Positions 28,121 through 46,136 of a stretch of DNA of 64,000 nt are shown one piece after another (positions within the stretch are counted from its first letter, which is position 1; the number at the start of each line of letters is the position of its first letter). Both the position numbers and the translations under genes were made by a program. The notes under the pieces are model-generated. The model saw only the letters and a list, made by a program, of their open reading frames with translations, had not been told where the DNA came from and made no database searches. The stretch is from Nitrospirota bacterium (lineage in GTDB: Bacteria; Nitrospirota; UBA9217), in contig DASPSR010000024.1 in the NCBI GenBank assembly GCA_035623825.1, forward strand, positions 1-64,000. The letters run 5' to 3'.

Positions 28121-28176
28121 CATTTTAATGCTGATTCCCACGTTCAAGCTCCTTCGTTTTGCTCTGGTTTAAATAA

Positions 28177-28192
28177 TTCAAGTACTGTGCCA
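28177..28192 (-). promoter_or_regulatory. sigma54 promoter (-12 GA variant) of the hemerythrin operon
   Basis: Minus strand TGGCACAGTACTTGAA. Confidence 0.6.
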
Positions 28193-28253
28193 GAGATGCT
28201 TGAAAACATACAATTGAAATCTATGGGGAATTTAATTGATCCTCGGCGGGATA

Positions 28254-28281
28254 GTCTCATAATGAGACAAGTTGTCTCATA
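28254..28281. promoter_or_regulatory. Putative enhancer (bEBP) binding sites
   Basis: Palindrome GTCTCATAATGAGAC (28254-28268) plus a second half-site TGTCTCATA (28273-28281), 60-90 bp upstream of the sigma54 site. Confidence 0.55.
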
Positions 28282-28517
28282 TTTGCTTAGGAGCAATCTC
28301 CGTTGATATGTTGAGGGGAAAGACTTGCTGCTCTAGATGGGTCAATTTTATTTGGAGTTAAATAACATGAATACCATGATCGAAAAACAGCCTATATAGG
28401 GGCAAGCACAGGGCGGTGCTCTTGGCACTCTTTGGGCTCATGCGATTGAAATTTACCGGGTAGCCACCATAGCGTGGGTTAAGACATTGATCAGCAATAG
28501 ACGATAGTCTCACCGGT

Positions 28518-29384: not shown

Positions 29385-29443
29385 ATGATCTCCTTAGCAT
29401 CAGGGAATGATGTCAATGGCTGTAAATTGGACGCGCCCGCGGT

Positions 29444-30283: not shown

Positions 30284-30560
30284 TATGGCTCCTTTCGGTC
30301 ACTCAGCTCTAACTTCCATCTAACCTTGCCCCAGAAACCTTTACCACCACGAGAGCCGGACCTATGGTAGCATAAAACCAAAGGGAGGGCAATCAGAGGT
30401 GCAAAAAGGGGTCAGTACCGGGCAAAATCATCGGAAAGCTCAGAGAGGCGGAGTTCTCCTGAGAAAAGGATCATCGGTAGCATATGTTTTAGAGATAAAT
30501 AATAACTTTTCAAAAGGCATTCAGTGCATCTACTCACTAGACGACCTTGGTTCGATGGTG

Positions 30561-30923
30561 TCAGAATTTTATCCCCAGCACTGCTGCCGCCTTGTTCAGT
30601 CTCTTGTCAAAGGTCCAAATATGGACGTTTGTCAACACGGCCGACGCCAGTAGATGGATATCAATATATCCCAATCCTTTACCCATCAGCCGATGAGTCT
30701 CGATAAACAGCATCACTTCTTCGTGATCGGCAAGTTGAGCAGAGGGAAGTGAATCAAGCAGTGACATAATTTGTGACCGGTTTTTGAGATTTCCACAAGC
30801 CAGTTCGCCGAGGATGAACGGATGGCAGACGACCTGTCCGTCATTCAACGATGATTCAAGCCCGGTTGTCCCGCTTCTGAGGTGCTCGACCCATACCGAT
30901 GTATCGACCAGCACCATTTTCAC
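30561..30923 (-). CDS. vapC: PIN-domain toxin (VapC)
   Basis: VLVDTSVWVEH, HPFILGELACG, GLGYIDIHLLAS, WTFDKRL. Confidence 0.9.
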   Translation of the reverse strand: MKMVLVDTSVWVEHLRSGTTGLESSLNDGQVVCHPFILGELACGNLKNRSQIMSLLDSLPSAQLADHEEVMLFIETHRLMGKGLGYIDIHLLASAVLTNVHIWTFDKRLNKAAAVLGIKF

Positions 30924-31117
30924 CTGACCGCCGTTCGTCGCCGAGGTATCGCCTTTAATCCTTTTTCTGACCCGCCCAGACGTGCGAGCCGCTTGGCGCT
31001 CTCAATTGCTATCAGCGACTCGAGCCCGCGTTTGACAAGCGATGTTTTTTCCTTAATCCCGGTTAACTTCGCCGCCTTATCGAGCAGTTTGTCCTCAATA
31101 TTCAATGTCGTCCGCAT
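30920..31117 (-). CDS. vapB: VapB antitoxin (RHH type)
   Basis: MRTTLNIEDKLL..A..LTG..EKT.LV..GL; overlaps vapC; upstream ATGTATTAAT repeats (31154-31173) are a likely operator. Confidence 0.9.
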   Translation of the reverse strand: MRTTLNIEDKLLDKAAKLTGIKEKTSLVKRGLESLIAIESAKRLARLGGSEKGLKAIPRRRTAVR

Positions 31118-31626
31118 GTCAGTGCCTCCCAGCCAATAGATATGCGTAATCATATGTATTAATATGTATTAATTTGCATCAATCTTATGCCGATGTCAAG
31201 GGGTTTTAAGCGGCATGGTGCGGCCAGTCTGAGTTTGGCATATTTTTCTACATACCGCTTAACCAATGTGTTGGCATCAATATAGAGATCATGTCACATT
31301 CATCATAATCGTCCCAATAGATTGTTCTTCAGTACCTTGTCATTATATTGACAATTTCTTTGCCTCCCCTACCCTAAAATAATCATAAAACATCGTAATT
31401 TCAATGCGTTATTCATAGCACTAAAATTGCTAGTCATATTGAATGGCTGTTGGTCGGATATACGTGTCCCACGACCCCGAATATAGCGTTCGTTGACGAT
31501 GTACCGGTTGCACTTTGTAACATGCCGGCAAAGTTGGAATTTAGCGTTGAAACTAAGGCCCGGGTGATCGTACCACGATCGATCATCCACCTTGCCGTTG
31601 TTCTTTAGTGACGAAGAGAATCGTGT

Positions 31627-34600
31627 ATGAGATTTGGAACACATCATAGCATCTTGAGACTTGCTGGAAACGCCATCATTTGCGTGGTTTTCGGGTTGAT
31701 CATGGCCGAGTCGGTCTCGGCCTCGATCCTGAACGAGCCCATGACCCACTCCACTGCGCCTGGCTGGGTGATAGGCGGGTCGGCATTCCTCACAGCAAGT
31801 AGCGGGCTCGATCCGGACGGAAACGGGTGGCTCCGGCTGACCGACCTGGGGGGCAACGAGGCTGGCTACGCCTATCTGAACACAGGGTTCGACATCACCC
31901 AGGGCGCGGTCATTCAATACGACTACGTCACCTGGGGCGGCGCGGGCGACGGTGGCTTCGGCTGCGGGACGACCGGAGCAGACGGCTACAGCGTCTTTCT
32001 CTTCGACGGCTCGCAGCCTTTCTCGGTCGGGGCATCGGGCGGATCGCTGGGCTATGCCCAGAAGACGGTTGCTCCAGTGAATCCGGGCCTGAATTACGGC
32101 TACATCGGCGTTGGTATCGACGAGTGGGGCAACTTTTCAAACCCCACCGAGGGGCGAATCGGCGGTCCGGGAGGCCGCTGCGATGCCGTGGCTCTCCGCG
32201 GTCCTTATAATCATCCCTCCGGCGCATACTTCTACCTCGGCGGGACCGCTTCCAGCATTGCGCAGTTGTCTTTCCCTGGCCAGGCCTACCGGCCCAGCCA
32301 GACCGGGATGGAATACCGCAAGGTCGTCGTTTACCTTACGCCCCAGTCAGCCCCGAACTATCTCAGGGTCGATGTATATCTCCAAGTCGGTTACAATCAG
32401 CCCCTCACACAGGTCCTGAACGGCCTCATGGTCGGCCGACCGGTGCCCGCAACGGTCATGATCGGCTACGCGGCGAGCACCGGCGGATCGAACAACTACC
32501 ACGAAATCAGAAACCTCATCGTCGACCCGCTTCCGTCGTCAGACATCGACCTATCGATCTCAAAGATCGCATCATCGCCCACTGTCACCCAGAGCGGCCC
32601 GATCACTTATACAGTGACCGCACGCAACAACGGCCCGAGCAACATCACGGCGAACAATGTGCCTATCACCGACACCGTCCCCTCTTTGATTACCGGTGTC
32701 ACCTGGACATGCGCCGCCGCAGGGGGGGCAACATGCGGAGCCGGATCGGGAAGCGGCAACGCCATCAATACCACCGCCACGCTGCCCCTGAACGGCTCTG
32801 CGGTCTATACCATCACCGGGACCGTCAGCGCCTCCGCCCCGCTCGGCACCCAAATTACCAACACGGCGGCGCTCACGGTCCCCGGGGGCATCAACGACTA
32901 CAACTCCTCCAACAACAGCTCGTCCGTGACCGTTTCGGTTACCGCAGCGCCGATCAGCATCTCCGGTATTGTCTTCAATGACAACGGCGCGGGCGGCGGG
33001 ACCGCCCACAACGGCGTGCAGGACGGGACCGAGGGAACAACGAATCAGACGGGGATGTATGCAAAGCTGTTCCGGTCAAGCGATCTGTCAACGGCACTTC
33101 AGACGTACGCGATCGCAGCGGCGGGTACATACACCTTCACGAACGTGCCGTCCTACGACAACTACACGGTCATCATCAGCAACGTGAACGATACGAATTT
33201 CAATCCCGGCCCCCCGAACGCCAACTGGGTCTATACCGCTCCCGCCAACTACACGCTGACCATGTCCGCCGGCGGCAGCAACCTGACCAACCAGAACTTC
33301 GGTCTCTGGAACGGCTCGCGAGTTTCCGGCAAGGTCATCAATGACAACGGCCTGAACGGCCCGATCTCCAACGCAAACGACGGCGTGCTGAACGCCGCGG
33401 AAACCGGGATCGCAGGCGTGACCGTGCGGCTGACGAACAACACCGGAGGCACAACCTACGACACGACGACTACTGACAGCGGAGGGAATTTCGCGCTCTA
33501 TACGAATACAGCGAGCGCTACGCTCAGGATCTACGAAACCAACCTGGCGGGATACATTTCCGTGAACTACAACGCCGGCACTACAGGCGGAACCTATACC
33601 ATCGGCAGCGACTACATCCAGTTTGCGTACACTCTCTACACCGATTACACCGGTGTCATCTTCAGCGACGTCCTGGACAACACCTTTTTGCTTGCTACGG
33701 GAGCCAAAAACGGGTCGGCCACGGCCCCGGTCTATTATGCCCACACTCTCACACCCAACACCGGCGGCAGCGTCTCCTTTTCGGTCAGCAGCAGGACCCA
33801 GGGCTCCTGGCCCGCGGTGGCATTCTACCAGGACACGAACTGCAACGGCGTTTACGATTCCGGCATCGACACACTGATCTCAGGGGCGATCACCGTTTAC
33901 GCCGGAACGCCGCTCTGCATCCTGGTCCAAGAGAACATACCATCGAGCGCGACGAACGGGACTGTGGACGCGATCGCGACGCAGGCGACCTTCACCTATA
34001 CCAACTCCGTGGGGCCTGTTGTCAGGACCTACAATGTGACGGACACGACCACAGTTGTGGCCTCCAATCTCTCGACGTCCACCAAGACCTGGACCGATCC
34101 CAACGGCGGCGACCAGAATCCCGGCGACCTGATCCCGTACACAATTACGCTCATCGAAACGGCAGGGGTCGCTGCCTCGGGCGTTACAGTGACGGACACC
34201 TTCCCGGCGGCGTTGACGAGTTTATCGGTCACGAGCTGCCCCGCGGGGGCGACCTGCAGCTTCGCAGGACAGACGCTCACCGCTACCAATGTCTCGGTCC
34301 CTGCGAGCGGGTCTGCCTCTATCGTCGTGTCCACCACAATAGCGGGCGGGACCACGGCCGGCACGACGATCAACAACACGGCCACGATCACGAACCCGGC
34401 GGGCCCGGGCGCGACGCCCGTAGCCCCGACGATCACGGTGTCCCAGTCGCAGGTTCCCGCCAGCGGCAACAAGCCGCTTTATCTGTACGACAACACGTCC
34501 ACCCCTCCTTACAAGCTTTCCCGGACAGCGCCGACAGCCGGTGCGGAGGTCACGATCAACGCCACATCATCGCAAACCTGGTCCCAAAACCCGGCTGCCG

Positions 34601-35727
34601 CGGGAGCCATCACGATCAACCCATCGGTAAGTGCCACGGTGCCGGTCTATCTATACGTAAGAGCGGGCACCACGAACGGCAACAGAAGCGTCACGGTCAG
34701 CCTCCAGTGTTCGTCGGGAGGCACGACGCTCACCCAGACGCAAACGCTTGCATTGAACAACACCATAACGCTTTACACCTACGGCCTGCCGCTCGGAGCT
34801 GCTTTGACCTGCGGAGCGGCCAACCGTTGGAACCTTACGGTCACGAACAACAGCGCGGCGGACTCGATCCGCGTCTCCCCGTACACCGGCGGCAACGTTT
34901 CCCGGGCCGTCCTTCCCTCAACCACGGTCATTAGCGTCAGCAGCGTCACCGCCTACAGCACAGCCTATCCCGGCACGACGCAACCCCTTGCGTTTACCTC
35001 AGGCAACATATACCTGCGTGCCGTGGTTAGCGACCCCTTCGGAAGCTACGATATCAACGCCAGCAACAATGCCACGACCCAGCCCAAGGTCACGATCAAG
35101 AACCCGAGCGGCACAGCCGTCGTGAGCGCCCAGCCCATGCCCCAGGCCGCGGACTCCGGCGCGGCGACCAAGACCTTCGAGTACGTCTATACGCCTGCGT
35201 CGTCGGTGCCCTCGGGGTACTGGACGGTGTCCGTCACGGCTCCCGAAGGGACGGAAGGAACTATTTCGGACACGGGGGTCGGCACGTTCTACATCGCACC
35301 GAGCCTGACGGCCGTCAAGACGGTACAGGCCGTTTCCGATCCTGTGAACGGCGGGACCACCCCCAAACCAATCCCTGGTGCTGCCATGCAATACACCCTT
35401 GTGGTCACGAACAGCAGCTTCGGGTTGGCGGACAACAATTCGATGGTGGTGACGGACGCAATCCCGACCAACACGAGCATGTGCGTTTCGAACACCTGCT
35501 CCAACCCGCCCGTTGCCTTTTCCTGCGCATCCTGCGGACTGAGCTACGTCTACGGAAGCAACGTCACCTATTCCAACCAAGCGGGCGGCGGGGCGCCGTA
35601 CAACTACACGCCGACGCCGGATGCTAACGGCTTTGACGCGAACGTCACGGGCGTCCGCGTGAACCCCACAGGAGCGATGGCGGGCAACACGTCATTCAAC
35701 ATGATTTTCCAGGTGAAGGTGCAATGA
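31627..35727 (+). CDS. Large secreted adhesin: L-type lectin + DUF11 and SdrD-B-like Ig domains, ending in an incomplete DUF11 domain
   Basis: Signal peptide; legume-lectin motifs (WLRLT, GADG, GGSLGY, IGIDEWGNF, ASTGG..NYHE); two complete DUF11 repeats; terminal domain LTAVKT...YTLVVTN...VVTDAIP...IFQVKVQ. Confidence 0.85.
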   Translation: MRFGTHHSILRLAGNAIICVVFGLIMAESVSASILNEPMTHSTAPGWVIGGSAFLTASSGLDPDGNGWLRLTDLGGNEAGYAYLNTGFDITQGAVIQYDYVTWGGAGDGGFGCGTTGADGYSVFLFDGSQPFSVGASGGSLGYAQKTVAPVNPGLNYGYIGVGIDEWGNFSNPTEGRIGGPGGRCDAVALRGPYNHPSGAYFYLGGTASSIAQLSFPGQAYRPSQTGMEYRKVVVYLTPQSAPNYLRVDVYLQVGYNQPLTQVLNGLMVGRPVPATVMIGYAASTGGSNNYHEIRNLIVDPLPSSDIDLSISKIASSPTVTQSGPITYTVTARNNGPSNITANNVPITDTVPSLITGVTWTCAAAGGATCGAGSGSGNAINTTATLPLNGSAVYTITGTVSASAPLGTQITNTAALTVPGGINDYNSSNNSSSVTVSVTAAPISISGIVFNDNGAGGGTAHNGVQDGTEGTTNQTGMYAKLFRSSDLSTALQTYAIAAAGTYTFTNVPSYDNYTVIISNVNDTNFNPGPPNANWVYTAPANYTLTMSAGGSNLTNQNFGLWNGSRVSGKVINDNGLNGPISNANDGVLNAAETGIAGVTVRLTNNTGGTTYDTTTTDSGGNFALYTNTASATLRIYETNLAGYISVNYNAGTTGGTYTIGSDYIQFAYTLYTDYTGVIFSDVLDNTFLLATGAKNGSATAPVYYAHTLTPNTGGSVSFSVSSRTQGSWPAVAFYQDTNCNGVYDSGIDTLISGAITVYAGTPLCILVQENIPSSATNGTVDAIATQATFTYTNSVGPVVRTYNVTDTTTVVASNLSTSTKTWTDPNGGDQNPGDLIPYTITLIETAGVAASGVTVTDTFPAALTSLSVTSCPAGATCSFAGQTLTATNVSVPASGSASIVVSTTIAGGTTAGTTINNTATITNPAGPGATPVAPTITVSQSQVPASGNKPLYLYDNTSTPPYKLSRTAPTAGAEVTINATSSQTWSQNPAAAGAITINPSVSATVPVYLYVRAGTTNGNRSVTVSLQCSSGGTTLTQTQTLALNNTITLYTYGLPLGAALTCGAANRWNLTVTNNSAADSIRVSPYTGGNVSRAVLPSTTVISVSSVTAYSTAYPGTTQPLAFTSGNIYLRAVVSDPFGSYDINASNNATTQPKVTIKNPSGTAVVSAQPMPQAADSGAATKTFEYVYTPASSVPSGYWTVSVTAPEGTEGTISDTGVGTFYIAPSLTAVKTVQAVSDPVNGGTTPKPIPGAAMQYTLVVTNSSFGLADNNSMVVTDAIPTNTSMCVSNTCSNPPVAFSCASCGLSYVYGSNVTYSNQAGGGAPYNYTPTPDANGFDANVTGVRVNPTGAMAGNTSFNMIFQVKVQ

Positions 35728-36848
35728 AAGAGTCGACATTCATACACAAACGTCATGGACGAAGGTCCGGCCGCGTTCGGGGCAAGATGCTGCTCCTTGC
35801 AGCGCTGTATATGATCTCCTGTTTCGTCGCGGGGCATGCCTTTGCCCTTGGCACTCCTGCCGGCACCGTGATCGGCAATACGGCCACTGTCATCTATACC
35901 ATGAGCGGGAACAATTACACCACTTCCAGCAATACGAACGCCATCAGGGTGGACGACAAGGTCAACTTCACCCTGACCGCCTCGAACGTCTCCGACGTGG
36001 CGATTGCACCCGGAGGCAGGGCGTCCATGGCGTACATCCTGACCAACACTGGCAACGGGCCACACGACTTCACGCTCAAACCGGCGGTAACGGGAGTACC
36101 GACGCTCGTGCCGGCGGCGGGCCCAGCATTCTATGCTGACACTGCCGGCACGGCGGCCCTGCCGACCGACCCGAACGCCAACGGACTCCCCTACATAAGC
36201 GCCCTGGCACCCGATGCATCCCGGACCGTGTACCTCTATATCACAGCGCCTGCCCAGCCCGTGGACGGACAGGCCATCGACTACCTCGTGACCGCGGAGG
36301 CGTACCAGCCCGCCAATCTGGGCGTGGTGAACCCGCCGGTGAAATCATCCACGGCGGCAGCCGCCGGAGCGTCCGCGAACAAGAACGCGAACCTCATGAC
36401 CCAGTACGTTGTGCTGGGAGACGGGCACGGCAATGGCGGAGACGCGGACCGGGACGGTCTCTATGCCGTGCTGGCGAAGGACGGAAGCGGCAACACGGTC
36501 GGGTTCAAGGCTCAGGCCGCGACGGTAACCGTGGCCAAGACGGCCGTGGTGACGGACCAGTATGGCGGCTCCCAACCTATGACCGGCGCAACGATCCGCT
36601 ACACCCTCTCGGTGACAGCCTCGGGCTCGGGAACCGCGATGAATGTCGTGGTCACGGACGCCGTGCCGGCGAACACAACCTATGTTCCGGGCACGCTCAA
36701 GCTGAACGGCACGGCCCTTTCCGACGCGCTCGACAGTGACGCCGGCGACGTTGGAGGGACCACCCCGGGGTCCGTAACGGTAACGCTCGGGAATCTGACG
36801 AGTACGTCGCCGGTCCAGACCATAACGTTTGCCGTCAGGATAAATTGA
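35724..36848 (+). CDS. DUF11-family secreted protein (putative fibre subunit)
   Basis: Signal peptide ending AFA, mature N-terminus LGTPAGTVIGNTATV, C-terminal VAKT...YTL...VVTDAVP...TITFAVRIN; the start may be the ATG at 35787. Confidence 0.85.
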   Translation: MKESTFIHKRHGRRSGRVRGKMLLLAALYMISCFVAGHAFALGTPAGTVIGNTATVIYTMSGNNYTTSSNTNAIRVDDKVNFTLTASNVSDVAIAPGGRASMAYILTNTGNGPHDFTLKPAVTGVPTLVPAAGPAFYADTAGTAALPTDPNANGLPYISALAPDASRTVYLYITAPAQPVDGQAIDYLVTAEAYQPANLGVVNPPVKSSTAAAAGASANKNANLMTQYVVLGDGHGNGGDADRDGLYAVLAKDGSGNTVGFKAQAATVTVAKTAVVTDQYGGSQPMTGATIRYTLSVTASGSGTAMNVVVTDAVPANTTYVPGTLKLNGTALSDALDSDAGDVGGTTPGSVTVTLGNLTSTSPVQTITFAVRIN

Positions 36849-36944
36849 TCAGAATCCAAGGAAAGGAGGCCATGTGTTACCGGAAGATGATGCAAGGTTT
36901 TCGAAACAAACAATCAATCTACTAATTCAAAAGGAGGAATGGTT

Positions 36945-37436
36945 ATGACAAACAGAATGTTCGGCATCATGCTCGCTCTCCTGCTGCTGACGACGGCGGC
37001 CTGGGCGCAGCAAAAGGGAGCCATCGAGCTCGTAACAAAAGCGGAAGTTGATGTGACGGAAACGAACGAGCAGGGAAAACAGGTGACGAAAAGAGTTGAT
37101 GCTTCAAAGGCAAACGTCGTGCCCGGCGACACGGTCATCTACACGATCTATTACACGAATAACGGCGACAAGCCGGCGACCAATGTCGTCATCCAGGACA
37201 AGGTGCCCGAGCACATGGTCTACGTAGAGGGAAGCGCAACGGGGAAAGACGCGCAGGTCGAATTCTCCACGGACCACGGAAAGAACTACGGGGCATCGGA
37301 CGCGCTCACGATCACCGATCTCCAGGGAAACAGACGAAAGGCAGCGGCCGCTGATTACACTGACATCCGGTGGATCGTGGCCAAGCTGGCTGCCGGGGCC
37401 AAAGGGAGCGTTACGTTCAATGCACGGGTGAAATGA
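36945..37436 (+). CDS. Small single-domain DUF11-like periplasmic protein
   Basis: RBS AAGGAGG, signal ending AWA, PGDTVIYTIYYTN...VIQDKVP...IRW...VTFNARVK. Confidence 0.85.
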   Translation: MTNRMFGIMLALLLLTTAAWAQQKGAIELVTKAEVDVTETNEQGKQVTKRVDASKANVVPGDTVIYTIYYTNNGDKPATNVVIQDKVPEHMVYVEGSATGKDAQVEFSTDHGKNYGASDALTITDLQGNRRKAAAADYTDIRWIVAKLAAGAKGSVTFNARVK

Positions 37437-37584
37437 GGAATTATGAAAAACAAAGAAAAATTCAAATCTACCAGAAAGGGGCGGTTTTGTGAAAAACACA
37501 TGCGCGATGAAGGAAAAGAGAAAGGAAGCAACGAGTCTTCAACATGCTGCAACCAACGGTTCAATATCTTTGCAAGGAGGAACT

Positions 37585-38757
37585 ATGAATATGTGTAAGG
37601 TTTACACACTCATTTCGGTGCTCCTGATCGGGGCGCTCGCAGCGGCTCTGCCGCAAGGGGCCCTGGCGGCCGGGACACTCGCCTGTACCCAGATCAACAA
37701 CAGGGCGTTCGTTAATTACCAGGTGGGAGGCATCCCGCAGACCCAGGTCGGATCCACCGACGGCTCGGGCAACAATAACACCTCGTTCTATGTGGGCGTC
37801 AAGGTGAACGTTACTGTGGCAACGACGGACGCGGCCAACGTGACCGTGAATCCAGGCGCGACCGGCACACAGACCCACTTCACGGTCACGAACAACGGCA
37901 ATGCGCCCCAGAAGTACGTCCTTACCTATGTGGCTGAGCCGAACGGAACGAGCAGCCCCTTCTCAGGAACGGACAACACCGATCTCAACAACATAGTCAT
38001 TTCGAGCGCCACGATCACCAGCCTGGCCCCGAACGCAAGCCAGCCGATAACCATCGCGGCGGATACTCCGCTTACCGCCACGAACGGACAGATCGCCGTG
38101 TACGCCCTGAAGGCCCAGACCCAGTGGGTCGGATCAAGCACCAGTGTGACCACCAAGGACAGCCAGGTCACCGCAGCAACGGTCAATGACAGCGGCCTCT
38201 GCACGGCGCTGGGCGCCGGCGTGAACATCGACGTCGTCGCCGGAGACGTGGCGGGCACCGACGATAACGCGAACGACGGAGCGCATTCGGCACGGAGTGC
38301 GTACGCGGTCTCCGCTTCGACCCTCACCGTCACGAAGACCTCGGCCGTGTATTGGGACCCGGTAAACCTTACTGTCACCCCTAAGGCCATCCCGGGCGCG
38401 GTCGTGACCTATACGATGACCATCGCGAATGCTGCAGGTTCCGCCAATGCTACCAGCGTGGTATTGAGCGACGACCTGACTGCGCAAATAGCGAATCTGA
38501 CCTTTGGAAACGGCCAGAGCGGCGCGCCGAACACATCATTCAATGACGGTGTGACCAACTGCACCGGAAGCGGCGCGGGATACGGCATTGTGGTCGCAGG
38601 CGCCTGCAAGACGAACGTGTACAACGCCAATGATGACGGGGCTTCCTGGAGCGATGCCGCTGATCCGAATGGAGGTGCAAACAAGATCGCCGTCAGCGGC
38701 CTGACGGTGAACGGAGGTGCAAACGTCGTTATCAAATATCAGGTGACCATCAAGTAG
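37585..38757 (+). CDS. DUF11-family secreted protein (putative major fibre subunit)
   Basis: ATG 37585 after AAGGAGG; signal ending ALA; mature AGTLACTQINNRAFV; C-terminal VTKTS..DPVN..PKAIPGAVVTYT...IKYQVTIK. Confidence 0.85.
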   Translation: MNMCKVYTLISVLLIGALAAALPQGALAAGTLACTQINNRAFVNYQVGGIPQTQVGSTDGSGNNNTSFYVGVKVNVTVATTDAANVTVNPGATGTQTHFTVTNNGNAPQKYVLTYVAEPNGTSSPFSGTDNTDLNNIVISSATITSLAPNASQPITIAADTPLTATNGQIAVYALKAQTQWVGSSTSVTTKDSQVTAATVNDSGLCTALGAGVNIDVVAGDVAGTDDNANDGAHSARSAYAVSASTLTVTKTSAVYWDPVNLTVTPKAIPGAVVTYTMTIANAAGSANATSVVLSDDLTAQIANLTFGNGQSGAPNTSFNDGVTNCTGSGAGYGIVVAGACKTNVYNANDDGASWSDAADPNGGANKIAVSGLTVNGGANVVIKYQVTIK

Positions 38758-38779
38758 CGGTAGCGAAAGAAGGATTGCG

Positions 38780-41700
38780 GTGAGGAAAGGCATCCGCATA
38801 TCGGCTTCGCTGCGGCGCATGGTCTCCGGCATTCATGCCGGGGCGTGCGCCGCAGTGCGCCCTTTTTCAGGAACTTCGGCAGTCTCCCTGCGCACGCATT
38901 ATCCAATTTGCGCTTTCATTGCATCGTTTTTATTCATTTTCCTTTGTTCTTCGGACCTCCCTGCGGCCACGCCGGCCGGGACGGTCATCTCGAACACAGC
39001 CGCGGCAGCCTATACGAACGGTCCTTCATCAGGGGCCATCATCAAAAATTCGAACACCGTGACGGTCACGGCCGTGGCCTTCCGCACGCCCTCGACGATC
39101 GAATTGCTGCAGTACGCCCCCGGTGCCGCCGGCGCCCAGATGGTGACGCTCTCGCCGCCCGCATACAGCGCGAGCGGAACGGCAGCCGGGCCGTTCGTCA
39201 CCCTGCCCTCCACCGTTCCCTCGGTCGGCGGCGCCACCATCAATCTCGCGAACCCCGTCCCGCTCGTCGCTGCGAGCCAATACCACGCGGGAGAGCCGGT
39301 CTTCATCAGGGTCACGGACCCTGACCAGAACCTGGACCCGAACACGGCCGAGACCGTGCTCGTCACCGTGACGGACAATCTGACGGGCGACAGCGAGCTG
39401 CTTCGCCTCACCGAGACAGGGCCGAACACCGGCGTGTTCGCCGGTTACCTCCCGACCACATCCGCGCCAAGTGTTCCCCACAATGGCCAGTTGAGCGTCG
39501 TGAGCAATTCGCGCGTCTCGGCAACATATACCGATGTTACAGACAACACGGACGCCTCCGCCGCCGCTGCCCTTGTCGATCCGCTCGGCAAGGTCTTCAG
39601 CAGTTCCAGCGGCCAGCCCGTGAACGGCGTCTCCATAACGATCGTCGACGCGAACACCGGTCAGCCCGCGGCAGTCTTCGGGGATAACGGAGTTGCAACC
39701 TTCCCGTCCACTGTCGTGTCGGGCGGAACGATCATGGACAGCGGCGGAACTGCCTATTCTTTCCCTGCCGGGACATTCCGCTTCCCCGCCGTCCCGCCGG
39801 GAACCTACAGGTACGTGGTGACCACCCCAGCCGGCTACCGGTTCCCGTCCACGGTGCCGTTCGTGGGATTGCAGGGCCTTCCCGGAGGGCCGTTCGCCCT
39901 CACTCCCGCCTCCCAGGGGAGTGCGTTCACTTTGACCGCGGGCTTTACGGTCCATATCGACATCCCCGTGGACACCTCGGGCAACAGGCTCTTTCTGCTC
40001 AAATCGGCGGCGAATTCGACCGCCGCGATCGGAGATTTCCTCCAGTATCAGCTGAGCGTGCAGAACACCGATACGACCGCGATTGTCCCGGCCGTCGTCG
40101 TGAGCGACGCTTTGCCCCTCGGGTTCCGCTACCGAAAGGGTTCCACCAAGCTCAATGGTCTCGTCGCCCCGGACCCCTCGATATCAAGTGACGGCCGCAC
40201 GCTGACCTTCACCGCCGGCGACCTCGCGGCCGGATCAACGGCTGCGATCTCTTACGTGACGGAAATCGCGGCGGGAGCGCAGACGGGCACTGCTGTCAAC
40301 ACCGCCGTCGCAAGCGGCACGGGTGCGACCTCCAACACGGCAGCGGCACAGGTCCTGGTCACGGACGACCTCTTCAGCGGAAAGGCCTTCATTGCGGGCC
40401 GGCTGCGGGTGGACGGCTGCGGAAAACCCGATGCCGCCGAGGAAAATGGACTGGAGGGTGTACGACTGTTCCTTGAGGACGGCACCTATGTGGTGACCGA
40501 CAAGAACGGCATGTATCACTTCGAGGGCGTGACTCCCGGCACCCACGTGGTGCAGGTCGACCTTGAAACGATCCCCGAGAAGTATGAGATCCTATCCTGC
40601 GAGGAGAACGACCGGTTCGCGGAGACCGCTTATTCACAGTTCGTGGACATCCAGGGCGGGACCCTCTGGCGGGCGGACTTCCACCTGGGCCTCAAGCCTC
40701 CACGGACCGGAGAGGCAGGGATCGATCTCCAAAGCGCGCTGACGAACGGTCCCGCGGCTGGCGCGAACGTGATCGAATACAGCATTCCACTCCATGTGGG
40801 GCCCGTGCCGCTCAGAAACCTGCGGCTCACCGTGATGCTGCCTGATGGAGCTTCCTACCAGCCCGGGAGCACTGGTTTGAACGCGGTCCCGCAGCCCGAC
40901 CCCGGCATCACGGAGAACGCGCTCACCTTCCGCGTCGGTGACATGCCCGCGGACTGGGACGGTACGTTGCGCTTCCGCGCTTCCATTCCCGTCGCGGGCA
41001 ACGCCACTGACCTGGCGACGAAAGCGCTCCTGACCTTCGACACGCCGCAAAAGAAAGACGAAAGGACCCCCGTCGTCGACAACCTGCTGGTGCGGCGGGT
41101 CATGACGGAGCGCCGGACCACGCCGGACATCGTCCTCCATCCGCGGTTCGCAGTGCTGAACTCCGCATTAAACAAGAAGGACCAGGAGGCCATTGACCGC
41201 CTGATAGAAAGCCTTAAACAGGTGAAGGTGCGTCATATCACTGTGACGGGCCATACGGACTCGAAAAAGATAGCTGGCCACGGCCTGAGGCAGTTCAAGG
41301 ACAACTATGAGCTGTCGCGGGCACGGGCCGAAACCGTCGGCCGCTATATCGCCGCTGGTTTGAACCTTTCCCCAGAGCAGGTAACGTTTATCGGCAAGGG
41401 GCCCGATGAGCCAGTGGCAACGAACGAGACAGCAGCAGGCCGTGCGTTGAACCGCCGCGTGGAGATCCAGGTCGAGACCGAAAGTGCCATTACCTCAGCC
41501 GAGCTGAAAAATGAAAAAGACCGGAGCGGAATGAAGACGGTCCCCACAACGGGCCTGCGGCCGGGCGAAAAGTGGGCAGAGGAGCCGAAGCACGGCGAGC
41601 AGGAGAAAAAGGAGATGCCCGAGTATACAAAGGCCTGGCTCGAGAGCGCCGAGCCCGGCCTAGCCTGGGTCTGGCCGGGTGACGGCTACCACCCGTCCCT

Positions 41701-44700
41701 CCCCGCATCCAGCATCGCGGTCAAACACGACCCCGAGCTGAAATTGAAGCTCTTCCTCAACGGTGCGGAGGTGGATTCGTTCTTCCTCGATACCACGCTC
41801 AAACGGCAGGACGACAAAGTGGCCCTCGCCATATGGAGAAACGTTCACCTGGAGGAGGGAGACAACATTCTCGAGGCGTCCCAGTATGACGAGAACGGCG
41901 CGCCGACCGCGCAGGTGAAACGGGTCATCCACTATTCACGGCCTCCGGTGAAGGCGGAGCTTGCGCCCGCGGCGTCGAAACTTGTCGCCGACGGCAAGAC
42001 CCCTCCGATCATCGCCGTCCTGCTCACGGACAAGGACGGACATCCGGCGCGGGAGGGAGTGATCGGCGAGTATGCCGTCGATCCGCCCCATATCCCGCTC
42101 GCGAGGTCCGAGGACCTTCAGAAGAACCCCTTGACTGCCTCGACGAGCGACAAGCTGAAGTTTCAGGTCGGAGAAAACGGTATCGCGCTGATTCAACTGC
42201 AGCCGACGACGCAGACCGGCCAGGCCGTGATCAGATTCAAGCTGATGAATGGTGTCCAGGAGGTACGGGCGTGGCTCGAGCCAGAAAAGCGCGACTGGAT
42301 TTTGGTGGGGCTTGCCGAGGGCACCGTAGGCTACAACGTGGTAAAGGGCAATATGGAGAGCCTGGCGGCCTCGGGCGTGGACGACCAGTATTATAAGGAC
42401 GGCAGGGTCGCATTCTACGCGAAAGGCGCGATCAAAGGCGAATGGCTCCTGACCATCGCCTATGACAGCAACAAAAGTCCCAACGGCTACCCGGGCAGCC
42501 TCTATCAGACGATCGATCCGAATACGTACTATACGCTCTACGGAGATGCCACGAATCAGCACTATGACGCGGCCAGTTCGCGCGCACTGTACCTCAAGCT
42601 CGAACGGAAACAGTTCTACGCCCTCTTCGGCGACTATGATACGGGCCTAACGATGACCGAACTGTCGCGGTACACCCGTCAGTTCACCGGTCTGAAATCG
42701 GAAATGAAATCGAACAGCTTCGATTACACGATCTACGTAAGCCAGAACGACCAGACGTTCATAAAGGATGAGATCCAGGGCAATGGCACATCCGGCCTCT
42801 ACCAGTTGTCACAGAAGAACATCATGATCAATTCGGAAACGGTTGTGATCGAGACGAGAGATCGCTTCAGGAGCGAATTGATCGTCTCCTCGCAGCCGCT
42901 GACTCGCTCCCTGGATTACACGATCGATTACAATGCGGGGACCATCTGGTTCAAAGCGCCTGTGTTCAGCAGGGATGCAAACTTCAACCCCAATTTCATC
43001 GTCGTGCGGTACGAAGTGCTCGGTTCCGACGGAAACTCCTACAATTACGGAGGCCGGGGCGCGGTGCGGGTGTATGACAACAAGGTCGAGGTCGGCGCCA
43101 CGTACATCCACGAGGAGCAAAACGGCGGGACCGGGAACCTCGCAGGCGCCGATGCCACGGTCAAGCTCGATGACCATACGAAGCTAAAGGCCGAGGTGGC
43201 AACCACGAAGAACGACGAGAGCGGCTCGCCGACCGAGGGCACGGCCTACCTCGCGGAGCTGTCGAGCCGTACGGACAAGTTCGAGGGAAAGGCCTATGTG
43301 CGGGACCAGCCGCCGGGATTCGGCCTCGGTCAGCAGAACGTCAGCGAAACAGGCACCCGCAAGACGGGATTCGACCTCGCCTACCGTTTGGGCCAGTCGT
43401 TCAGTCTGCAGAGCGAGGTTTACCACGAGATAAACCTCGCGACCGAGGCCGTCAGAGACGTAGCCGAACTGGAGTCGAGGTATTCCGAAAAGCGCTATGA
43501 GGTCTTCGGCGGCGTGCGCTACGCTGAAGACACGTTCGTCAACAGCCCGACGCAGTTGTCGGACCAGATTTTCGTCGGCAGCCGGTACCAGATGACGGAC
43601 CGTCTTTCCTTCACCGTCCGCCGCGACCAGTCTATCGGGGGTGAAAACGGGAATGCCGATTTTCCAACACGCACGATCCTGGGGGCCGATTACAAGCTAA
43701 ACAGCTCCGCTACGCTCTTTGCGAACCAGGAGCTGACGCACGGGGCAAGTCAAGATACGGCCACCTCGCGCGTCGGTCTGCGCTCCTCGCCGTGGGCCGG
43801 CGGACAGATCAACTCCACGATAGAGGATCAGTCCTCGGAAAACGGCGAGCGGCTCTTCTCCACCCTGGGCCTTAAGCAGACTTGGCAGGTGAACAAGCAA
43901 TGGTCCGTGGACGTCGGGCTCGACCGCTCGGCGACGATCTCAGGTGCGACGGGAACGACTCCGCCGCCCCCCCAGTTCAACAGCAACGTGCCTCCGGCAT
44001 CGGGAGGACCGAACTTCACCGCCGTTTCTCTCGGCGCGGGATACCGGGCTGAAAAGTGGTCATGGACGGGCCGCGTGGAAGAACGTTTCGCTTCAGGCGA
44101 CAAGAATTTGGTGGTCCTCTCCGGCGTGAACGGAGAGGTGCGGGAAGGGCTAGGGCTCGCCGCGGGGGTCCGGGTGTTCCAGATGCCGAACACGAACGGC
44201 GCCAGGACCTCTAACGACGATCTGCGGTTGAGCCTTGCGTACCGTCCGAAGAATAGCGACTGGATCGTGCTCGACCGCCTGGACTTTATCATCGATGAGC
44301 GCAGGGACAGCTCGTTCGACTACAACACCTGGCGCACCGTCAACAACCTGAACGTGAACTACAAGCCGGCTCATGACATGCAAATCGCCCTCCAGTATGC
44401 GTGTAAGTACGTCCAGGAGACCATCGACCAGCTGGACTACCGGGGTTATACGGACCTCATCGGACTGGAAGGCAGGTATGACGTGACCAAAACGTGGGAC
44501 ATCGGACTTCGAGTCAAAGTGCTTCATAGCTGGAGCGCGGACCAGTATAAATACGGCACAGGTCCTTTCGTTGGATTTAATTTCGCCAAGAACCTCCTCC
44601 TCCAGGTGGGTTACAATATCACAGGATTCTCGGACAGGGATTTTTCGAAGGCCGATTTCACCGCCTGCGGTCCTTTCCTCAAGCTGAGCCTCAAGTTCGA

Positions 44701-44746
44701 CCAGATGAGCATTCGCGAAGCGGTGAAATTGTTCTCCGGCCAGTGA
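38780..44746 (+). CDS. 1988-aa outer-membrane protein: DUF11/Ig domains + OmpA domain + C-terminal beta-barrel
   Basis: Mature ATPAGTVISNTAAA; complete internal DUF11; OmpA motifs GHTDS, NYELSRARA and NRRVEI; about 800 C-terminal residues of alternating amphipathic beta-strands; GTG start uncertain. Confidence 0.85.
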   Translation: MRKGIRISASLRRMVSGIHAGACAAVRPFSGTSAVSLRTHYPICAFIASFLFIFLCSSDLPAATPAGTVISNTAAAAYTNGPSSGAIIKNSNTVTVTAVAFRTPSTIELLQYAPGAAGAQMVTLSPPAYSASGTAAGPFVTLPSTVPSVGGATINLANPVPLVAASQYHAGEPVFIRVTDPDQNLDPNTAETVLVTVTDNLTGDSELLRLTETGPNTGVFAGYLPTTSAPSVPHNGQLSVVSNSRVSATYTDVTDNTDASAAAALVDPLGKVFSSSSGQPVNGVSITIVDANTGQPAAVFGDNGVATFPSTVVSGGTIMDSGGTAYSFPAGTFRFPAVPPGTYRYVVTTPAGYRFPSTVPFVGLQGLPGGPFALTPASQGSAFTLTAGFTVHIDIPVDTSGNRLFLLKSAANSTAAIGDFLQYQLSVQNTDTTAIVPAVVVSDALPLGFRYRKGSTKLNGLVAPDPSISSDGRTLTFTAGDLAAGSTAAISYVTEIAAGAQTGTAVNTAVASGTGATSNTAAAQVLVTDDLFSGKAFIAGRLRVDGCGKPDAAEENGLEGVRLFLEDGTYVVTDKNGMYHFEGVTPGTHVVQVDLETIPEKYEILSCEENDRFAETAYSQFVDIQGGTLWRADFHLGLKPPRTGEAGIDLQSALTNGPAAGANVIEYSIPLHVGPVPLRNLRLTVMLPDGASYQPGSTGLNAVPQPDPGITENALTFRVGDMPADWDGTLRFRASIPVAGNATDLATKALLTFDTPQKKDERTPVVDNLLVRRVMTERRTTPDIVLHPRFAVLNSALNKKDQEAIDRLIESLKQVKVRHITVTGHTDSKKIAGHGLRQFKDNYELSRARAETVGRYIAAGLNLSPEQVTFIGKGPDEPVATNETAAGRALNRRVEIQVETESAITSAELKNEKDRSGMKTVPTTGLRPGEKWAEEPKHGEQEKKEMPEYTKAWLESAEPGLAWVWPGDGYHPSLPASSIAVKHDPELKLKLFLNGAEVDSFFLDTTLKRQDDKVALAIWRNVHLEEGDNILEASQYDENGAPTAQVKRVIHYSRPPVKAELAPAASKLVADGKTPPIIAVLLTDKDGHPAREGVIGEYAVDPPHIPLARSEDLQKNPLTASTSDKLKFQVGENGIALIQLQPTTQTGQAVIRFKLMNGVQEVRAWLEPEKRDWILVGLAEGTVGYNVVKGNMESLAASGVDDQYYKDGRVAFYAKGAIKGEWLLTIAYDSNKSPNGYPGSLYQTIDPNTYYTLYGDATNQHYDAASSRALYLKLERKQFYALFGDYDTGLTMTELSRYTRQFTGLKSEMKSNSFDYTIYVSQNDQTFIKDEIQGNGTSGLYQLSQKNIMINSETVVIETRDRFRSELIVSSQPLTRSLDYTIDYNAGTIWFKAPVFSRDANFNPNFIVVRYEVLGSDGNSYNYGGRGAVRVYDNKVEVGATYIHEEQNGGTGNLAGADATVKLDDHTKLKAEVATTKNDESGSPTEGTAYLAELSSRTDKFEGKAYVRDQPPGFGLGQQNVSETGTRKTGFDLAYRLGQSFSLQSEVYHEINLATEAVRDVAELESRYSEKRYEVFGGVRYAEDTFVNSPTQLSDQIFVGSRYQMTDRLSFTVRRDQSIGGENGNADFPTRTILGADYKLNSSATLFANQELTHGASQDTATSRVGLRSSPWAGGQINSTIEDQSSENGERLFSTLGLKQTWQVNKQWSVDVGLDRSATISGATGTTPPPPQFNSNVPPASGGPNFTAVSLGAGYRAEKWSWTGRVEERFASGDKNLVVLSGVNGEVREGLGLAAGVRVFQMPNTNGARTSNDDLRLSLAYRPKNSDWIVLDRLDFIIDERRDSSFDYNTWRTVNNLNVNYKPAHDMQIALQYACKYVQETIDQLDYRGYTDLIGLEGRYDVTKTWDIGLRVKVLHSWSADQYKYGTGPFVGFNFAKNLLLQVGYNITGFSDRDFSKADFTACGPFLKLSLKFDQMSIREAVKLFSGQ

Positions 44747-45046
44747 GCACAAGGTTCAGAGGCATGGACGATGGATTTATTCAACCATCTTTTTTTCTAT
44801 TCTTGATATATTCTGAAACTAGATTAATAGATTCGAGTCCAAGGAAATCGAACTCTTCAAAATGCGGGGCAGTCGCTGCAAGCAGGCTATAGACAATTAT
44901 ATAGGAGCAGGTCTAAATCTCTTCGGGTTTCATATCTGAAGGCCTGTCGCACTCAGAAAATACGACAGACAGGCTGTGACAATATTGCCTTTAGCCTGCC
45001 TGATCGGAAACACGCTATTTTATCATCACAGCAGCCGGGTCGGTTT

Positions 45047-45400
45047 TTATTTCCCTTGCAGCTCTGCCGCCCTCATCTTATGCCATTTTTCGGTTTCAAG
45101 GTAATCGGATTTTAATTTCTCAGTATCATGAATTATGGCATCGCAATGCTTTTCCATTTCCTTTAGCCGACTGACAGGCGTTACCTTTTCATTAATAAAG
45201 TACTGTTGTTTGTACTCGCTTTTCATCTGCTGATGCTCTGCGATAATCGCGTCCTGCTCAACTGCCTTGCCTGCGTAATATTTCTCCATCTTGAGATGGT
45301 CGGCGGCCACCTGTGACGGCTCGGTAGCGTACACGTTTTGGGAAAACGCAAAACCAATAAGAAGCGCTAAACTTAAAATTGTAATCCTATGCTTTTTCAT
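45047..45400 (-). CDS. Secreted helical His/Met-containing hypothetical protein
   Basis: ATG 45400 after GGGGG; signal peptide; periodic His/Met (DHLKM, EHQQM, MEKHC, WHKM) suggests metal binding. Confidence 0.65.
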   Translation of the reverse strand: MKKHRITILSLALLIGFAFSQNVYATEPSQVAADHLKMEKYYAGKAVEQDAIIAEHQQMKSEYKQQYFINEKVTPVSRLKEMEKHCDAIIHDTEKLKSDYLETEKWHKMRAAELQGK

Positions 45401-45498
45401 TTTATCCCCCGTTTTAATAATTTTAAATAGGTCAACTAGGTTGAACCTCATTTTTCCCTTGCATCCATTGTTTCACCTCCAATCCCCGAACGTAACTA

Positions 45499-45897
45499 CT
45501 ACCGTGCATCAACATTAAACGTGGCCGATGCCGGTGCTTTCCCGGGTTGAGTGATAGTGGCATCTATTTTCCATCCGCCTTCCATGGCAACGTTAACCGT
45601 AAAGGGATACTCGTTCCCCTTGAGCTGGGGCTGAACGCTGCTTTCCATAGGTGCCATCCCGGGCATCGGCGGCATATAGAAACGGATATCGACTTTGGCA
45701 TCCGTCACCGCTTTTCCCGAAGATTCCACTACTTTCACCGATAAATTATTGTCTCCCTTTATCAGCGGGTAACGGTCGGCTCTGAGAGTAATGTTCAGGC
45801 CGGCAGCATTCTTCTGCGATTCGTATCCCTTGGAACATCCTCCTAAAACAGCGACTGATAGCACGAGCACCAAAACCACCAAAACCTGCCTCTTCAT
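45499..45897 (-). CDS. FixH/YtkA-like lipoprotein
   Basis: Lipobox LGGC; G.N.L.V...G..VTDAKV...YMPPMPGMAPM...MEGGW. Confidence 0.8.
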   Translation of the reverse strand: MKRQVLVVLVLVLSVAVLGGCSKGYESQKNAAGLNITLRADRYPLIKGDNNLSVKVVESSGKAVTDAKVDIRFYMPPMPGMAPMESSVQPQLKGNEYPFTVNVAMEGGWKIDATITQPGKAPASATFNVDAR

Positions 45898-46136
45898 GAT
45901 TGAAATTCCTCCTAAGAATTATTTATTTATATTTTTTTATAGATTGCATCTTTTATACCATTTTGTTGCATTAATTATTCCGGCTAGTTACGTGCTGTTG
46001 ACTGACCATACTGAAGCGTCTGATTGATAAGCTGAAGGAAATGCTACAGTGCGGAGGATTTTTGAACCGACGGACTTCAGAAAAAAATGTAAATCGACAA
46101 ATCAGGTCCTACTGGTTTTGCGCTGAAACGTCGTTT

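Follow-up and report, generated by a model that had tools for sequence, protein, structure and literature searches.

Five adjoining genes in the window (the whole stretch of DNA analysed here, 64,000 nucleotides, from an environmental diderm bacterium) encode a DUF11 domain that is split between chains: four proteins end in a copy without its last two strands, and in three the missing strands stand directly after the signal peptide. We propose that this operon encodes a self-locking surface fibre in which a split CLIPPER domain is completed by donor-strand complementation, and give this reading a probability of roughly 0.55. Its in-silico basis is the split itself, its conservation, synteny, a predicted trans interface and a predicted barrel fold. 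The preliminary description of the locus had already proposed a donor-strand-complemented, isopeptide-lockable fibre. That reading is supported: each part of it that can be tested in silico matched the prediction, with the corrections given below.

Architecture of the operon

Translation of the ORFs confirmed the coordinates and lengths described earlier for a five-gene DUF11 operon, P0001 to P0005 (Table 1). The start of P0002 and the stop of P0001 overlap by 4 nt. The open frame of P0004 begins upstream of the ATG used here, at GTG 37489 (37489-38757, 422 aa). In a Pfam search, DUF11 (PF01345) scored above its cut-off of 24.6 bits in P0001 (67.2), P0002 (29.6), P0003 (44.4) and P0005 (33.9). 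P0004, which had no match in the Pfam profile search, matches the P0002 profile (E 7.7e-34) and is a P0002 paralogue.

Internal repeats cover positions 1-114 and 5-109 of the DUF11 profile, and the C-terminal domains of P0002 and P0003 cover 4-80 and 3-81 of 114. Complete repeats contain a Lys/Asp/Asn set: K313/D349/N412 and K820/D857/N917 in P0001, K408/D443/N507 in P0005. The first repeat of P0001 is an internal reference for the unsplit domain. CnaA-like domains are described as linking their first and penultimate strands by an isopeptide, which in CLIPPER is an Asp-catalysed Lys-Asn bond (PDB 9IFR; PMC12617251). DUF11 is CnaA-like in that source, and not CnaB-like as the preliminary description had it.

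The terminal domains of P0001 (K1231/D1277), P0002 (K272/D312), P0004 (K283/D328) and P0003 (K34/D87) retain the acceptor Lys and Asp but break off short of the Asn strand, the split point being the loop ahead of the penultimate strand. The two absent strands directly follow the signal peptide, whose cleavage site was judged by eye from the sequence, in P0002 (L42 onward, N52), P0004 (A61 onward, N71) and P0005 (A63 onward, N72). Lys, Asp and Asn are united within one domain in the complete repeats inside P0001 and P0005 and in none of the terminal domains, whose missing Asn strand occurs at the N-terminus of other chains. Both Pfam coverage and an HMM of the donor segment bear out the earlier claim of truncated C-terminal domains and displaced strand pairs. 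Of the donor positions then given, 38966 is exact; 35847 and 37669 lie one codon upstream of the motif Gly. Among 713 ORFs from the window region and 12 loci, the donor HMM matched only P0002-like, P0004-like and anchor ORFs, and no tip or P0003-like ORF. Because the matches are restricted in this way, the donor pattern is beyond chance.

Table 1 Coordinates of the genes and domain parts in the window
Feature	Position	Strand	Details
P0001	31627..35727	+	1366 aa; candidate tip protein
P0001 complete DUF11/CLIPPER repeat 1, residues 308-436	32548..32934	+	profile 1-114 of 114; K313, D349, N412
P0001 acceptor half-domain	35299..35724	+	K1231, D1277; end IFQVKVQ before Asn strand
P0002	35724..36848	+	374 aa; candidate shaft subunit
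P0002 donor strand pair, residues 42-79	35847..35960	+	N52 codon 35877-35879
P0002 acceptor half-domain, residues 262-374	36507..36845	+	K272 codon 36537-36539; D312 codon 36657-36659
P0003	36939..37436	+	165 aa; 163 aa if read from third codon
P0004	37585..38757	+	390 aa from ATG 37585; candidate second shaft or adaptor subunit
P0004 donor N71	codon 37699-37701	+	acceptor of the same protein: K283, D328
P0005	38780..44746	+	1988 aa; candidate anchor
P0005 donor N72	codon 38993-38995	+	the donor is the sole half-domain part of P0005
P0005 OmpA-like domain, residues 790-892	41147..41455	+	PF00691, E 2.8e-14, 53.7 bits, cut-off 27.2
P0005 predicted outer-membrane beta-barrel, residues ~1404-1976	42989..44707	+	AF2 model

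Conservation of gene order and putative lock residues

Relatives at E ≤ 0.001 numbered 415 among the 8000 candidates scored. The order tip, shaft, small protein, shaft, anchor was found again in 12 other loci examined; as predicted, the HMM and synteny survey found the donor-acceptor polarity from tip to base kept across them. Acceptors outnumber donors by one in the operon (4 against 3). A fused 'Rosetta' form was searched for, and none was found.

In the P0002 family (n = 121), acceptor Lys272 and Asp312 are both present in 121 of 121 members, and donor Asn52 in 111 of the 117 sequences without a gap. Donor residues G43, T44, G47, N52 and A54 are conserved to at least 90%. The C-terminus falls on the same residue in 119 of 121 members: these chains stop with the final strand of the half-domain and carry nothing beyond it. 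The N, K, D triad is kept in all 12 P0004-like orthologues and the acceptor Asp in all 11 tip orthologues, while in 13 of 13 anchors a donor with Asn immediately follows the signal peptide. The earlier assignment of Lys and Asp to the acceptor and Asn to the donor therefore stands for the relatives of P0002 and P0004, the tip Asp and the anchor Asn, and fails for the P0003 family.

P0003 is a single half-domain with no donor. It was rightly described as an acceptor, but its family (n = 67) has lost the lock residues: Asn stands in place of Asp in 59 of 67 members and Lys is not fixed. The end point is the same in 67 of 67, and the donor motif occurs in 0 of 67. Since this family has the same truncated fold, no donor and no lock, the invariance of Lys, Asp and Asn elsewhere is not merely structural. 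P0003 may act as a reversible cap or a strand-accepting chaperone for donor strands.

Predicted joint between P0002 subunits

P0002 consists of a signal peptide, the donor strand pair, an Ig-like domain 1 (with an invariant NTGNG) and the acceptor, with a linker of ~70 residues between the last two. Modelling a homo-pair of the mature protein had been suggested in the preliminary description, and the two-copy model (residues 42-374) does place the donor in trans. Three runs gave ipSAE values of 0.02, 0.51 and 0.44 (median 0.44; best of 3 controls, 0.01), with partner pLDDT of at least 85 and between-run contact agreement of at least 9%. The ipSAE mark was reached by 20 of 30 one-chain-pair structures against 1 of 23 single-chain structures, a calibration that is only approximate for the alignment used with P0002. 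The pass could also stem from model memory of intact CnaA-like domains.

The donor was placed in the partner copy in two of the three runs, the remaining one being that of 0.02. This is evidence against P0002 and P0004 being self-complemented monomers, that is, separate secreted or surface proteins with the N-terminal strands in their own C-terminal domain and an intramolecular isopeptide: the trans position was chosen though cis was open to the model. The AF2 monomer is confident on the N-terminal strands (pLDDT ~84-92), which fits a cis fold-back, as do the long linker and the one run without a confident interface; ~40 linker residues are, however, absent from many homologues. Moreover, across 13 loci tips have a conserved acceptor Lys/Asp and no donor, and anchors have an Asn donor and no open acceptor. 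Acceptor-only tips and donor-only anchors cannot complement themselves, and we regard the monomers as very improbable.

The predicted interface is one-directional, with residues 265-318, 358 and 373-374 of copy 1 facing 43-79 of copy 2. The 25 listed contacts include 272:54, 312:54, 295:54 and 312:69; Lys272-Asn52 is absent among them, and those listed reach Ala54, on the same strand two residues along. As the triad is represented here by residue contacts only, complementation might be non-covalent as in chaperone-usher pili, with Lys, Asp and Asn only hydrogen-bonding the core. BsaA oligomers of C. perfringens are reported to be SDS-stable even without their bond (bioRxiv 10.1101/2024.11.04.621531), and the CLIPPER survey describes some DUF11 domains that have none (PMC12617251). 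Against such a joint, the near-invariant residues of the P0002 family sit where the bond forms in the solved CLIPPER domain, and they drift in the sister family P0003, which retains the fold. We judge it improbable and infer a covalent bond.

The two-copy model is open and head-to-tail, leaving one donor and one acceptor free. This open-polymer geometry speaks against a defined stalk, in which one each of tip, P0002, P0004 and anchor would be locked once per joint into a long four-polypeptide adhesin. The four genes are nevertheless conserved as a set, the donor and acceptor sequences differ between P0002 and P0004 and could encode pairing specificity, and, by the stated caveat of the tool, a homodimer pass can arise when the modelled partner is a close relative of the true one. 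G170 has three shaft paralogues, which shows that the piece count can vary. A defined stalk seems unlikely, and we infer that a fibre may hold several P0002 copies.

Candidate tip and anchor, and assembly factors

P0001 comprises a signal peptide, a lectin-like N-terminal region, two complete DUF11 repeats, an SdrD_B-like domain and the acceptor half-domain. The lectin-like match is to Lectin_L-type and reaches 24 bits (E 3.7e-5), short of the cut-off of 78.3. The donor HMM gave no match to it. P0005 has a signal peptide, the donor pair, an Ig-like stalk with one complete DUF11, an OmpA-like domain and a C-terminal beta-barrel. The AF2 model of the barrel (31 sequences; pLDDT 78.3, pTM 0.70) has 32 consecutive long antiparallel strands. 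Its best Foldseek matches were SprA, SlpA, MtrB, LptD, FimD and PapC, all with low TM-scores of 0.14-0.30. The best structural look-alikes are large outer-membrane barrels, FimD and PapC figuring only as low-TM ones. The donor-only base proposed earlier retains its donor, OmpA-like domain and barrel; we amend it in that the giant barrel, of ~32 strands, may double as the export pore for the fibre.

That neither sortase nor usher is encoded agrees with our searches: PF04203 and PF00577 each had 0 matches in the genome, whose completeness is 89.65%. The PapD-like chaperone PF00345 likewise had 0 matches there, with a positive control in E. coli. Omp85 is present in the genome, and none of the five translations contains an LPXTG sorting signal.

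Proposed assembly

In the fibre that we favour, the C-terminal half-domain of an acceptor subunit would contribute Lys, on the first strand, together with the catalytic Asp, and the mature N-terminus of the next subunit would give the penultimate strand, with Asn, and the last strand. Insertion would rebuild a whole domain across two polypeptides. As it would gather Lys, Asp and Asn, a spontaneous Lys-Asn isopeptide bond could lock the joint without a sortase. Polarity would be tip first: the lectin-like P0001 would offer just an acceptor, the paralogues P0002 and P0004 would be donor-plus-acceptor links, and P0005, donor only, would end the chain, with its barrel holding it in the outer membrane and its OmpA-like domain on the peptidoglycan. 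The fibre may leave the periplasm through this barrel. P0003, a lock-less acceptor, could serve as a reversible cap or chaperone of donor strands.

Comparison with known systems

We found no description of this split-domain fibre system in the literature. Described CLIPPER domains of fibrillar adhesins (PDB 9IFR) share the PF01345 family and the Lys/Asp/Asn triad; they are whole, with an intramolecular bond, whereas here the domain is split between chains. We saw neither a split domain nor an intermolecular bond mentioned in PMC12617251, where the words 'split' and 'truncated' have 0 occurrences.

BsaA biofilm fibres of Clostridium perfringens (TasA family), with their 'donor-strand exchange and lock', resemble the proposed fibre in a spontaneous intermolecular Lys-Asn isopeptide, acidic-residue catalysis and no sortase (bioRxiv 10.1101/2024.11.04.621531). 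They differ in fold and family: TasA/Peptidase_M73 (PF12389) had one match here, P0003 (E 0.0085, 16.4 bits, below the cut-off of 22.5). The BsaA triad is N-E-K, against N-D-K in the CnaA-like domain here; the host is Gram-positive with a SipW peptidase, and BsaA has neither tip adhesin nor barrel anchor. The archaeal thread (Saci_0406, Sulfolobus acidocaldarius) likewise combines donor-strand complementation with proposed intermolecular isopeptides and no chaperone-usher, but in its described bond the partners are the alpha-amine of Asp24, at the N-terminus, and Asn57 of subunit n+2 (PMC9715654). It is made of one subunit type without a Pfam domain, in a host without an outer membrane, and not of a tip, shaft and anchor set. 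Haloarchaeal tat-fimbriae (tafi) have AlphaFold-predicted donor-strand exchange, and a lectin-like (laminin G-like) tip, adaptor, major subunit and membrane anchor encoded together (PMC11821415). They differ in their archaeal host, Tat export and cytoplasmic-membrane anchor; 'isopeptide' occurs 0 times in the text of PMC11821415.

Chaperone-usher pili (type 1 and P pili) have an acceptor-only tip adhesin, tip-first polarity and anchoring at a large outer-membrane barrel. One strand is donated there, whereas two would be here, in a CnaA-like fold that holds a covalent-lock triad; the last subunit here also carries the barrel, in one chain with an OmpA-like domain, and no PapD-like chaperone or usher was found in the genome. 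Type V pili of Bacteroidota have lipoprotein pilins, an N-terminal strand removed by proteolysis and C-terminal donor strands. In P0002 and P0004 the donor is N-terminal, and by eye the signal peptides have no lipobox Cys at the cleavage site. Sortase-dependent Gram-positive pili are set apart by the sortase (PF04203) and LPXTG features that our searches did not find. SpyTag/SpyCatcher is an engineered cut of an isopeptide domain, in which a strand on one partner bonds the rest on the other. It is man-made, CnaB-type and forms a Lys-Asp bond; the present case would be a natural split of CnaA type, with two strands, serving polymerisation.

Taken further, the operon might represent an unrecognised class of diderm pilus, with natural SpyTag/SpyCatcher-like self-ligation and no sortase, chaperone or usher. 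Its barrel would be both anchor and pore, and P0003 a strand-accepting chaperone, the mirror of the strand-donating PapD. We advance this tentatively, leaning slightly against it. To our knowledge, covalently linked pili are a hallmark of Gram-positive, sortase-built fibres, and the known donor-strand fibres of diderms (chaperone-usher, type V) are non-covalent. If true, the self-ligating donor-strand fibre would be a new assembly route in diderms, and would account for the hundreds of 'TIGR01451 repeat' proteins that are unnamed in environmental bacteria, Geobacter-like ones among them. With three donors and four acceptors per operon, it would supply natural orthogonal tag/catcher pairs for protein engineering. 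Finally, the giant barrel, being part of the last subunit, suggests a way, open to test, for a folded and cross-linked fibre to cross the outer membrane.

A DUF11 domain split between neighbouring proteins

DUF11 (PF01345) is matched by Pfam in the large tip candidate P0001, the shaft candidate P0002, the small protein P0003 and the anchor P0005. The internal repeats span the whole profile (residues 308-436 of P0001, profile positions 1-114 of 114; residues 407-520 of P0005, positions 5-109), and complete repeats carry Lys, Asp and Asn at the expected spacing: K313/D349/N412, K820/D857/N917 and K408/D443/N507. The C-terminal domains, in contrast, end near profile position 80 (residues 276-353 of P0002, positions 4-80; residues 48-126 of P0003, positions 3-81), and the four terminal half-domains, or acceptors, retain Lys and Asp and stop one strand ahead of Asn. 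The two strands that they lack, penultimate and last, instead open mature P0002, its paralogue P0004 and P0005. These donor strands lead directly into the next Ig-like domain, in the manner of a tandem array, as though the cut had been made inside a domain and not between domains. With truncated acceptors set against complete repeats and donors placed after signal peptides, the split noticed in the preliminary description is confirmed.

The isolated donor peptides (49-52 aa) are too short for Pfam, which found no DUF11 match in them; that they resemble the final strand pair of complete repeats comes from reading the translations and from the complex model below. DUF11 was renamed CLIPPER in 2025 (PMC12617251). 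In the crystal structure reported there (PDB 9IFR), Asp748 catalyses an isopeptide between Lys715 and Asn806 of one molecule, which links the first and penultimate strands of a CnaA-like fold; the CnaB-like fold first proposed is thus to be replaced. Since a phmmer search of PDB sequences with the complete repeat 1 of P0001 gave no match at E <= 1, we base the mapping to 9IFR on motif spacing together with the residue numbers given in the paper. Searched with jackhmmer against the genome's own ORFs, the same repeat matched P0001 itself alone.

Coordinates and main features of the operon and of the other loci named in the text.
Feature	Coordinates	Strand	Length	Acceptor Lys/Asp	Donor Asn	Remark
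Operon	31627-44746	+				five genes, one strand
P0001, tip		+	1366 aa	K1231/D1277		first of five genes
P0002, shaft		+	374 aa	K272/D312	N52	start overlaps P0001 stop
P0003	36939-37436	+	165 aa	K34/D87		
P0004, shaft paralogue	from ATG 37585	+	390 aa	K283/D328	N71	open frame begins GTG 37489
P0005, anchor		+	1988 aa		N72	last of five genes
P0005 barrel module	41900-44743					
PIN-domain gene	30561-30923	-				just upstream of operon, E 4.5e-7
Flanks used for GC	28000-32000, 44000-46000					
Segment in peat metagenomes	35724-38757					
P0004-like second shaft paralogue	G127:C1:1261142-1262176					1 TGA
Decayed barrel	G239:C1:8477-10585					7 TGA and 1 TAA
Split anchor	G218:C8 about 234300-237100					several frames
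Locus L038	G170:C10:86000-105999					three shaft paralogues in a row
Second barrel module in own genome	G000:C52:2203-3294		1694-aa frame			
DUF11-like repeat frame (L003-L005)	G000:C2 about 61800-66200		2987 aa			

Predicted donor insertion between two copies of P0002

The complex model covers the homotypic pair of mature P0002 (residues 42-374), built with a 37-row alignment. Three runs gave ipSAE values of 0.02, 0.51 and 0.44, one of them thus failing; the median of 0.44 reached the tool's mark, whereas the highest score among three controls was 0.01. In calibration, 20 of 30 proteins solved as one-chain pairs attained this mark, as did 1 of 23 solved single chains, and the partner of a close paralogue can score too. 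The partner had a pLDDT of 85 or more, and contact agreement between runs was at least 9%.

In the best run the insertion goes one way only: copy 1 contributes acceptor residues 265-318, 358 and 373-374, which pack against donor residues 43-79 and parts of domain 1 of copy 2. The donor of copy 1 and the acceptor of copy 2 are left free, so that the modelled pair has the geometry expected of an open polymer growing head to tail. A54 is contacted by both K272 and D312, and N52 lies two residues away on the same strand face; N52 figures in the interface list, and the pair 272:52 is absent from the 25 listed pairs. The model suggests proximity of the three residues, and it may also be recalling intact CnaA-like folds.

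In the AF2 monomer of P0002 (pLDDT 87.7) the N-terminal strands are likewise predicted with confidence, as would be expected if they folded back in cis; AlphaFold models of the donor-strand subunits of haloarchaeal tafi behave likewise, according to their authors (PMC11821415). A Foldseek search with this monomer was uninformative, returning generic tandem Ig-like matches only (integrin legs, complement).

Conservation of the lock residues and of the operon

Among 8000 scored candidates, 415 relatives of P0002 were found at E <= 0.001, whose source names go no further than 'TIGR01451 repeat' or 'hypothetical'; the MAGs behind a few of them carry the labels Geobacter sp., Deltaproteobacteria, Eisenbacteria and Steroidobacteraceae. 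When the query is aligned with 120 relatives among the matches listed, K272 and D312 are both present in 121/121 sequences, N52 in 111 of the 117 that have no gap there, and 119/121 chains stop at one and the same alignment position; donor residues G43, T44, G47 and A54 are near-invariant. Asn, Lys and Asp are likewise kept in 12/12 P0004-like paralogues. Across the 713 ORFs of the window region and 12 fetched loci, a donor HMM matched only P0002-like, P0004-like and anchor ORFs, with no match to tips or P0003-like ORFs. The search for a Rosetta-stone fusion found none, an absence that counts as weak evidence: longer forms of P0002 amounted to two weak matches (871 aa, 35% coverage).

Genomes with a P0002-like gene usually have two such paralogues, separated by about 1.7 kb. 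All 12 loci fetched from these genomes contain a large anchor gene, a second shaft paralogue and a P0003-like gene, some anchors being fragmented or cut by contig ends. Decayed copies in relatives, with stop codons or split frames, are listed in the table. In L038, a gene upstream of the three shaft paralogues ends, by eye, in what looks like a Fis-type helix-turn-helix of sigma-54 activators.

With the window as the thirteenth locus, a large protein with a C-terminal acceptor and no donor occurs in 11/13 loci, its Asp kept in 11/11; in two of these 11 it lies downstream of the anchor, and the examined flanks of the remaining two loci contain none. An Asn-bearing donor motif follows the signal peptide in 13/13 anchors. 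The tip, shaft and base polarity that had been proposed is conserved across loci. Acceptor-only tips and donor-only anchors are unable to complete themselves, which makes them the strongest sequence-level case for complementation in trans.

P0003, a single half-domain without donor, departs from this pattern. In a set of 67 members (the window copy and 66 relatives), all 67 stop at the same truncated point and a donor motif occurs in 0/67. The catalytic position holds Asn in 59/67, Asp in 6/67 and another residue in 2/67; the window copy has Asp87. Lys is unfixed: 6 members have it where the window copy does, and 29 have it two residues before that point. Because the family, unlike the other classes, lacks fixed lock residues, P0003 probably takes up a donor strand and leaves it unlocked; it may serve as a strand-accepting chaperone or as a cap that can come off again. 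The protein, previously given as 163 aa, thus keeps its assignment as an acceptor half-domain but loses the lock at family level.

This drift implies that more than the needs of folding keeps Lys, Asp and Asn invariant in the other classes. We put the probability that the operon builds a trans-complemented, isopeptide-locked fibre at about 0.55, slightly better than even, and assign the larger part of the rest to a non-covalent fibre or to a stalk of four defined pieces.

All five proteins have signal-peptide-like N-termini by eye. A P0002-like gene (E <= 1e-20) occurs in 27/401 sampled genomes of the phylum, this one included, in 19/63 of the same family and in 0/3 others of the same genus. 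The GC content of the operon block is 59-63%, against 49-51% in its flanks. This GC island and the patchy distribution among relatives suggest a horizontally moving accessory block. The neighbouring genes (TPR, ChaN, PIN, YtkA, PLP enzyme, histidine kinase) are unrelated to the operon. Scans gave background levels of promoter-like sites (4 against 4.4 expected) and terminator-like sites (17 against 13.4), and no RNA run figures among the listed sequencing runs with operon DNA. Seven runs with the label peat metagenome contain nearly all of one operon segment (shares 0.62-1.00), and four of these runs are marked possible sources of the assembly.

The anchor and its predicted giant barrel

After its donor, P0005 continues with Ig-like domains, including one complete DUF11, an SdrD_B/carboxypeptidase-regulatory-like domain, an OmpA-like domain (790-892) and about 1090 residues without family match. 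An AF2 model of residues 1041-1988 (31 sequences, pLDDT 78.3, pTM 0.70) contains an unbroken series of 32 long antiparallel strands, which spans residues 1404 to 1976 approximately. Its best Foldseek matches are SprA of the type 9 translocon, Deinococcus SlpA, MtrB, LptD and the ushers FimD and PapC, with TM-scores so low (0.14-0.30) that the likeness to outer-membrane barrels holds at class level only. An Atlas search with the C-terminus returned only unnamed or 'outer membrane protein' clusters.

The barrel module is present in 61/401 genomes, also on other very large ORFs (1400-4650 aa), and appears to be an anchor unit that giant surface proteins have in common; a second copy lies elsewhere in the same genome. 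The genome also encodes a long frame of tandem DUF11-like repeats, a candidate conventional fibrillar adhesin.

Six matches to Omp85 proteins mark the genome as diderm. With the stalk outside and the OmpA-like domain on peptidoglycan, the chain would cross the outer membrane once, and the simplest route would be its own barrel. The modelled barrel may thus act as an export pore. That no usher is encoded stands at family level, but a functional analogue may be present. Altogether, the fibre interpretation of the preliminary description is supported in silico with three corrections: the fold type, the P0003 lock and the barrel as a possible pore.

Relation to known systems

An assembly in which donor-strand exchange comes first and an isopeptide lock then forms spontaneously, as proposed here, is described for C. 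perfringens BsaA, which differs in its TasA fold, N-E-K triad and Gram-positive host (bioRxiv 10.1101/2024.11.04.621531). The Sulfolobus thread combines donor-strand exchange with a proposed isopeptide lock, the bond running from the N-terminal amine to Asn (PMC9715654), and haloarchaeal tafi are predicted donor-strand fibres with a lectin-like tip, adaptor, major subunit and anchor (PMC11821415). The available portion of the CLIPPER paper (PMC12617251) treats the domain throughout as a complete unit with its bond inside one molecule. Our search found no paper on a split DUF11/CLIPPER domain, on the fibre or on the operon; supplements (BsaA phylogeny, CLIPPER Table S2) might list relatives. 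The mechanism class, donor-strand exchange with an isopeptide lock, is already known; what is new here is the fold, the type of host envelope and the module for anchoring and export.
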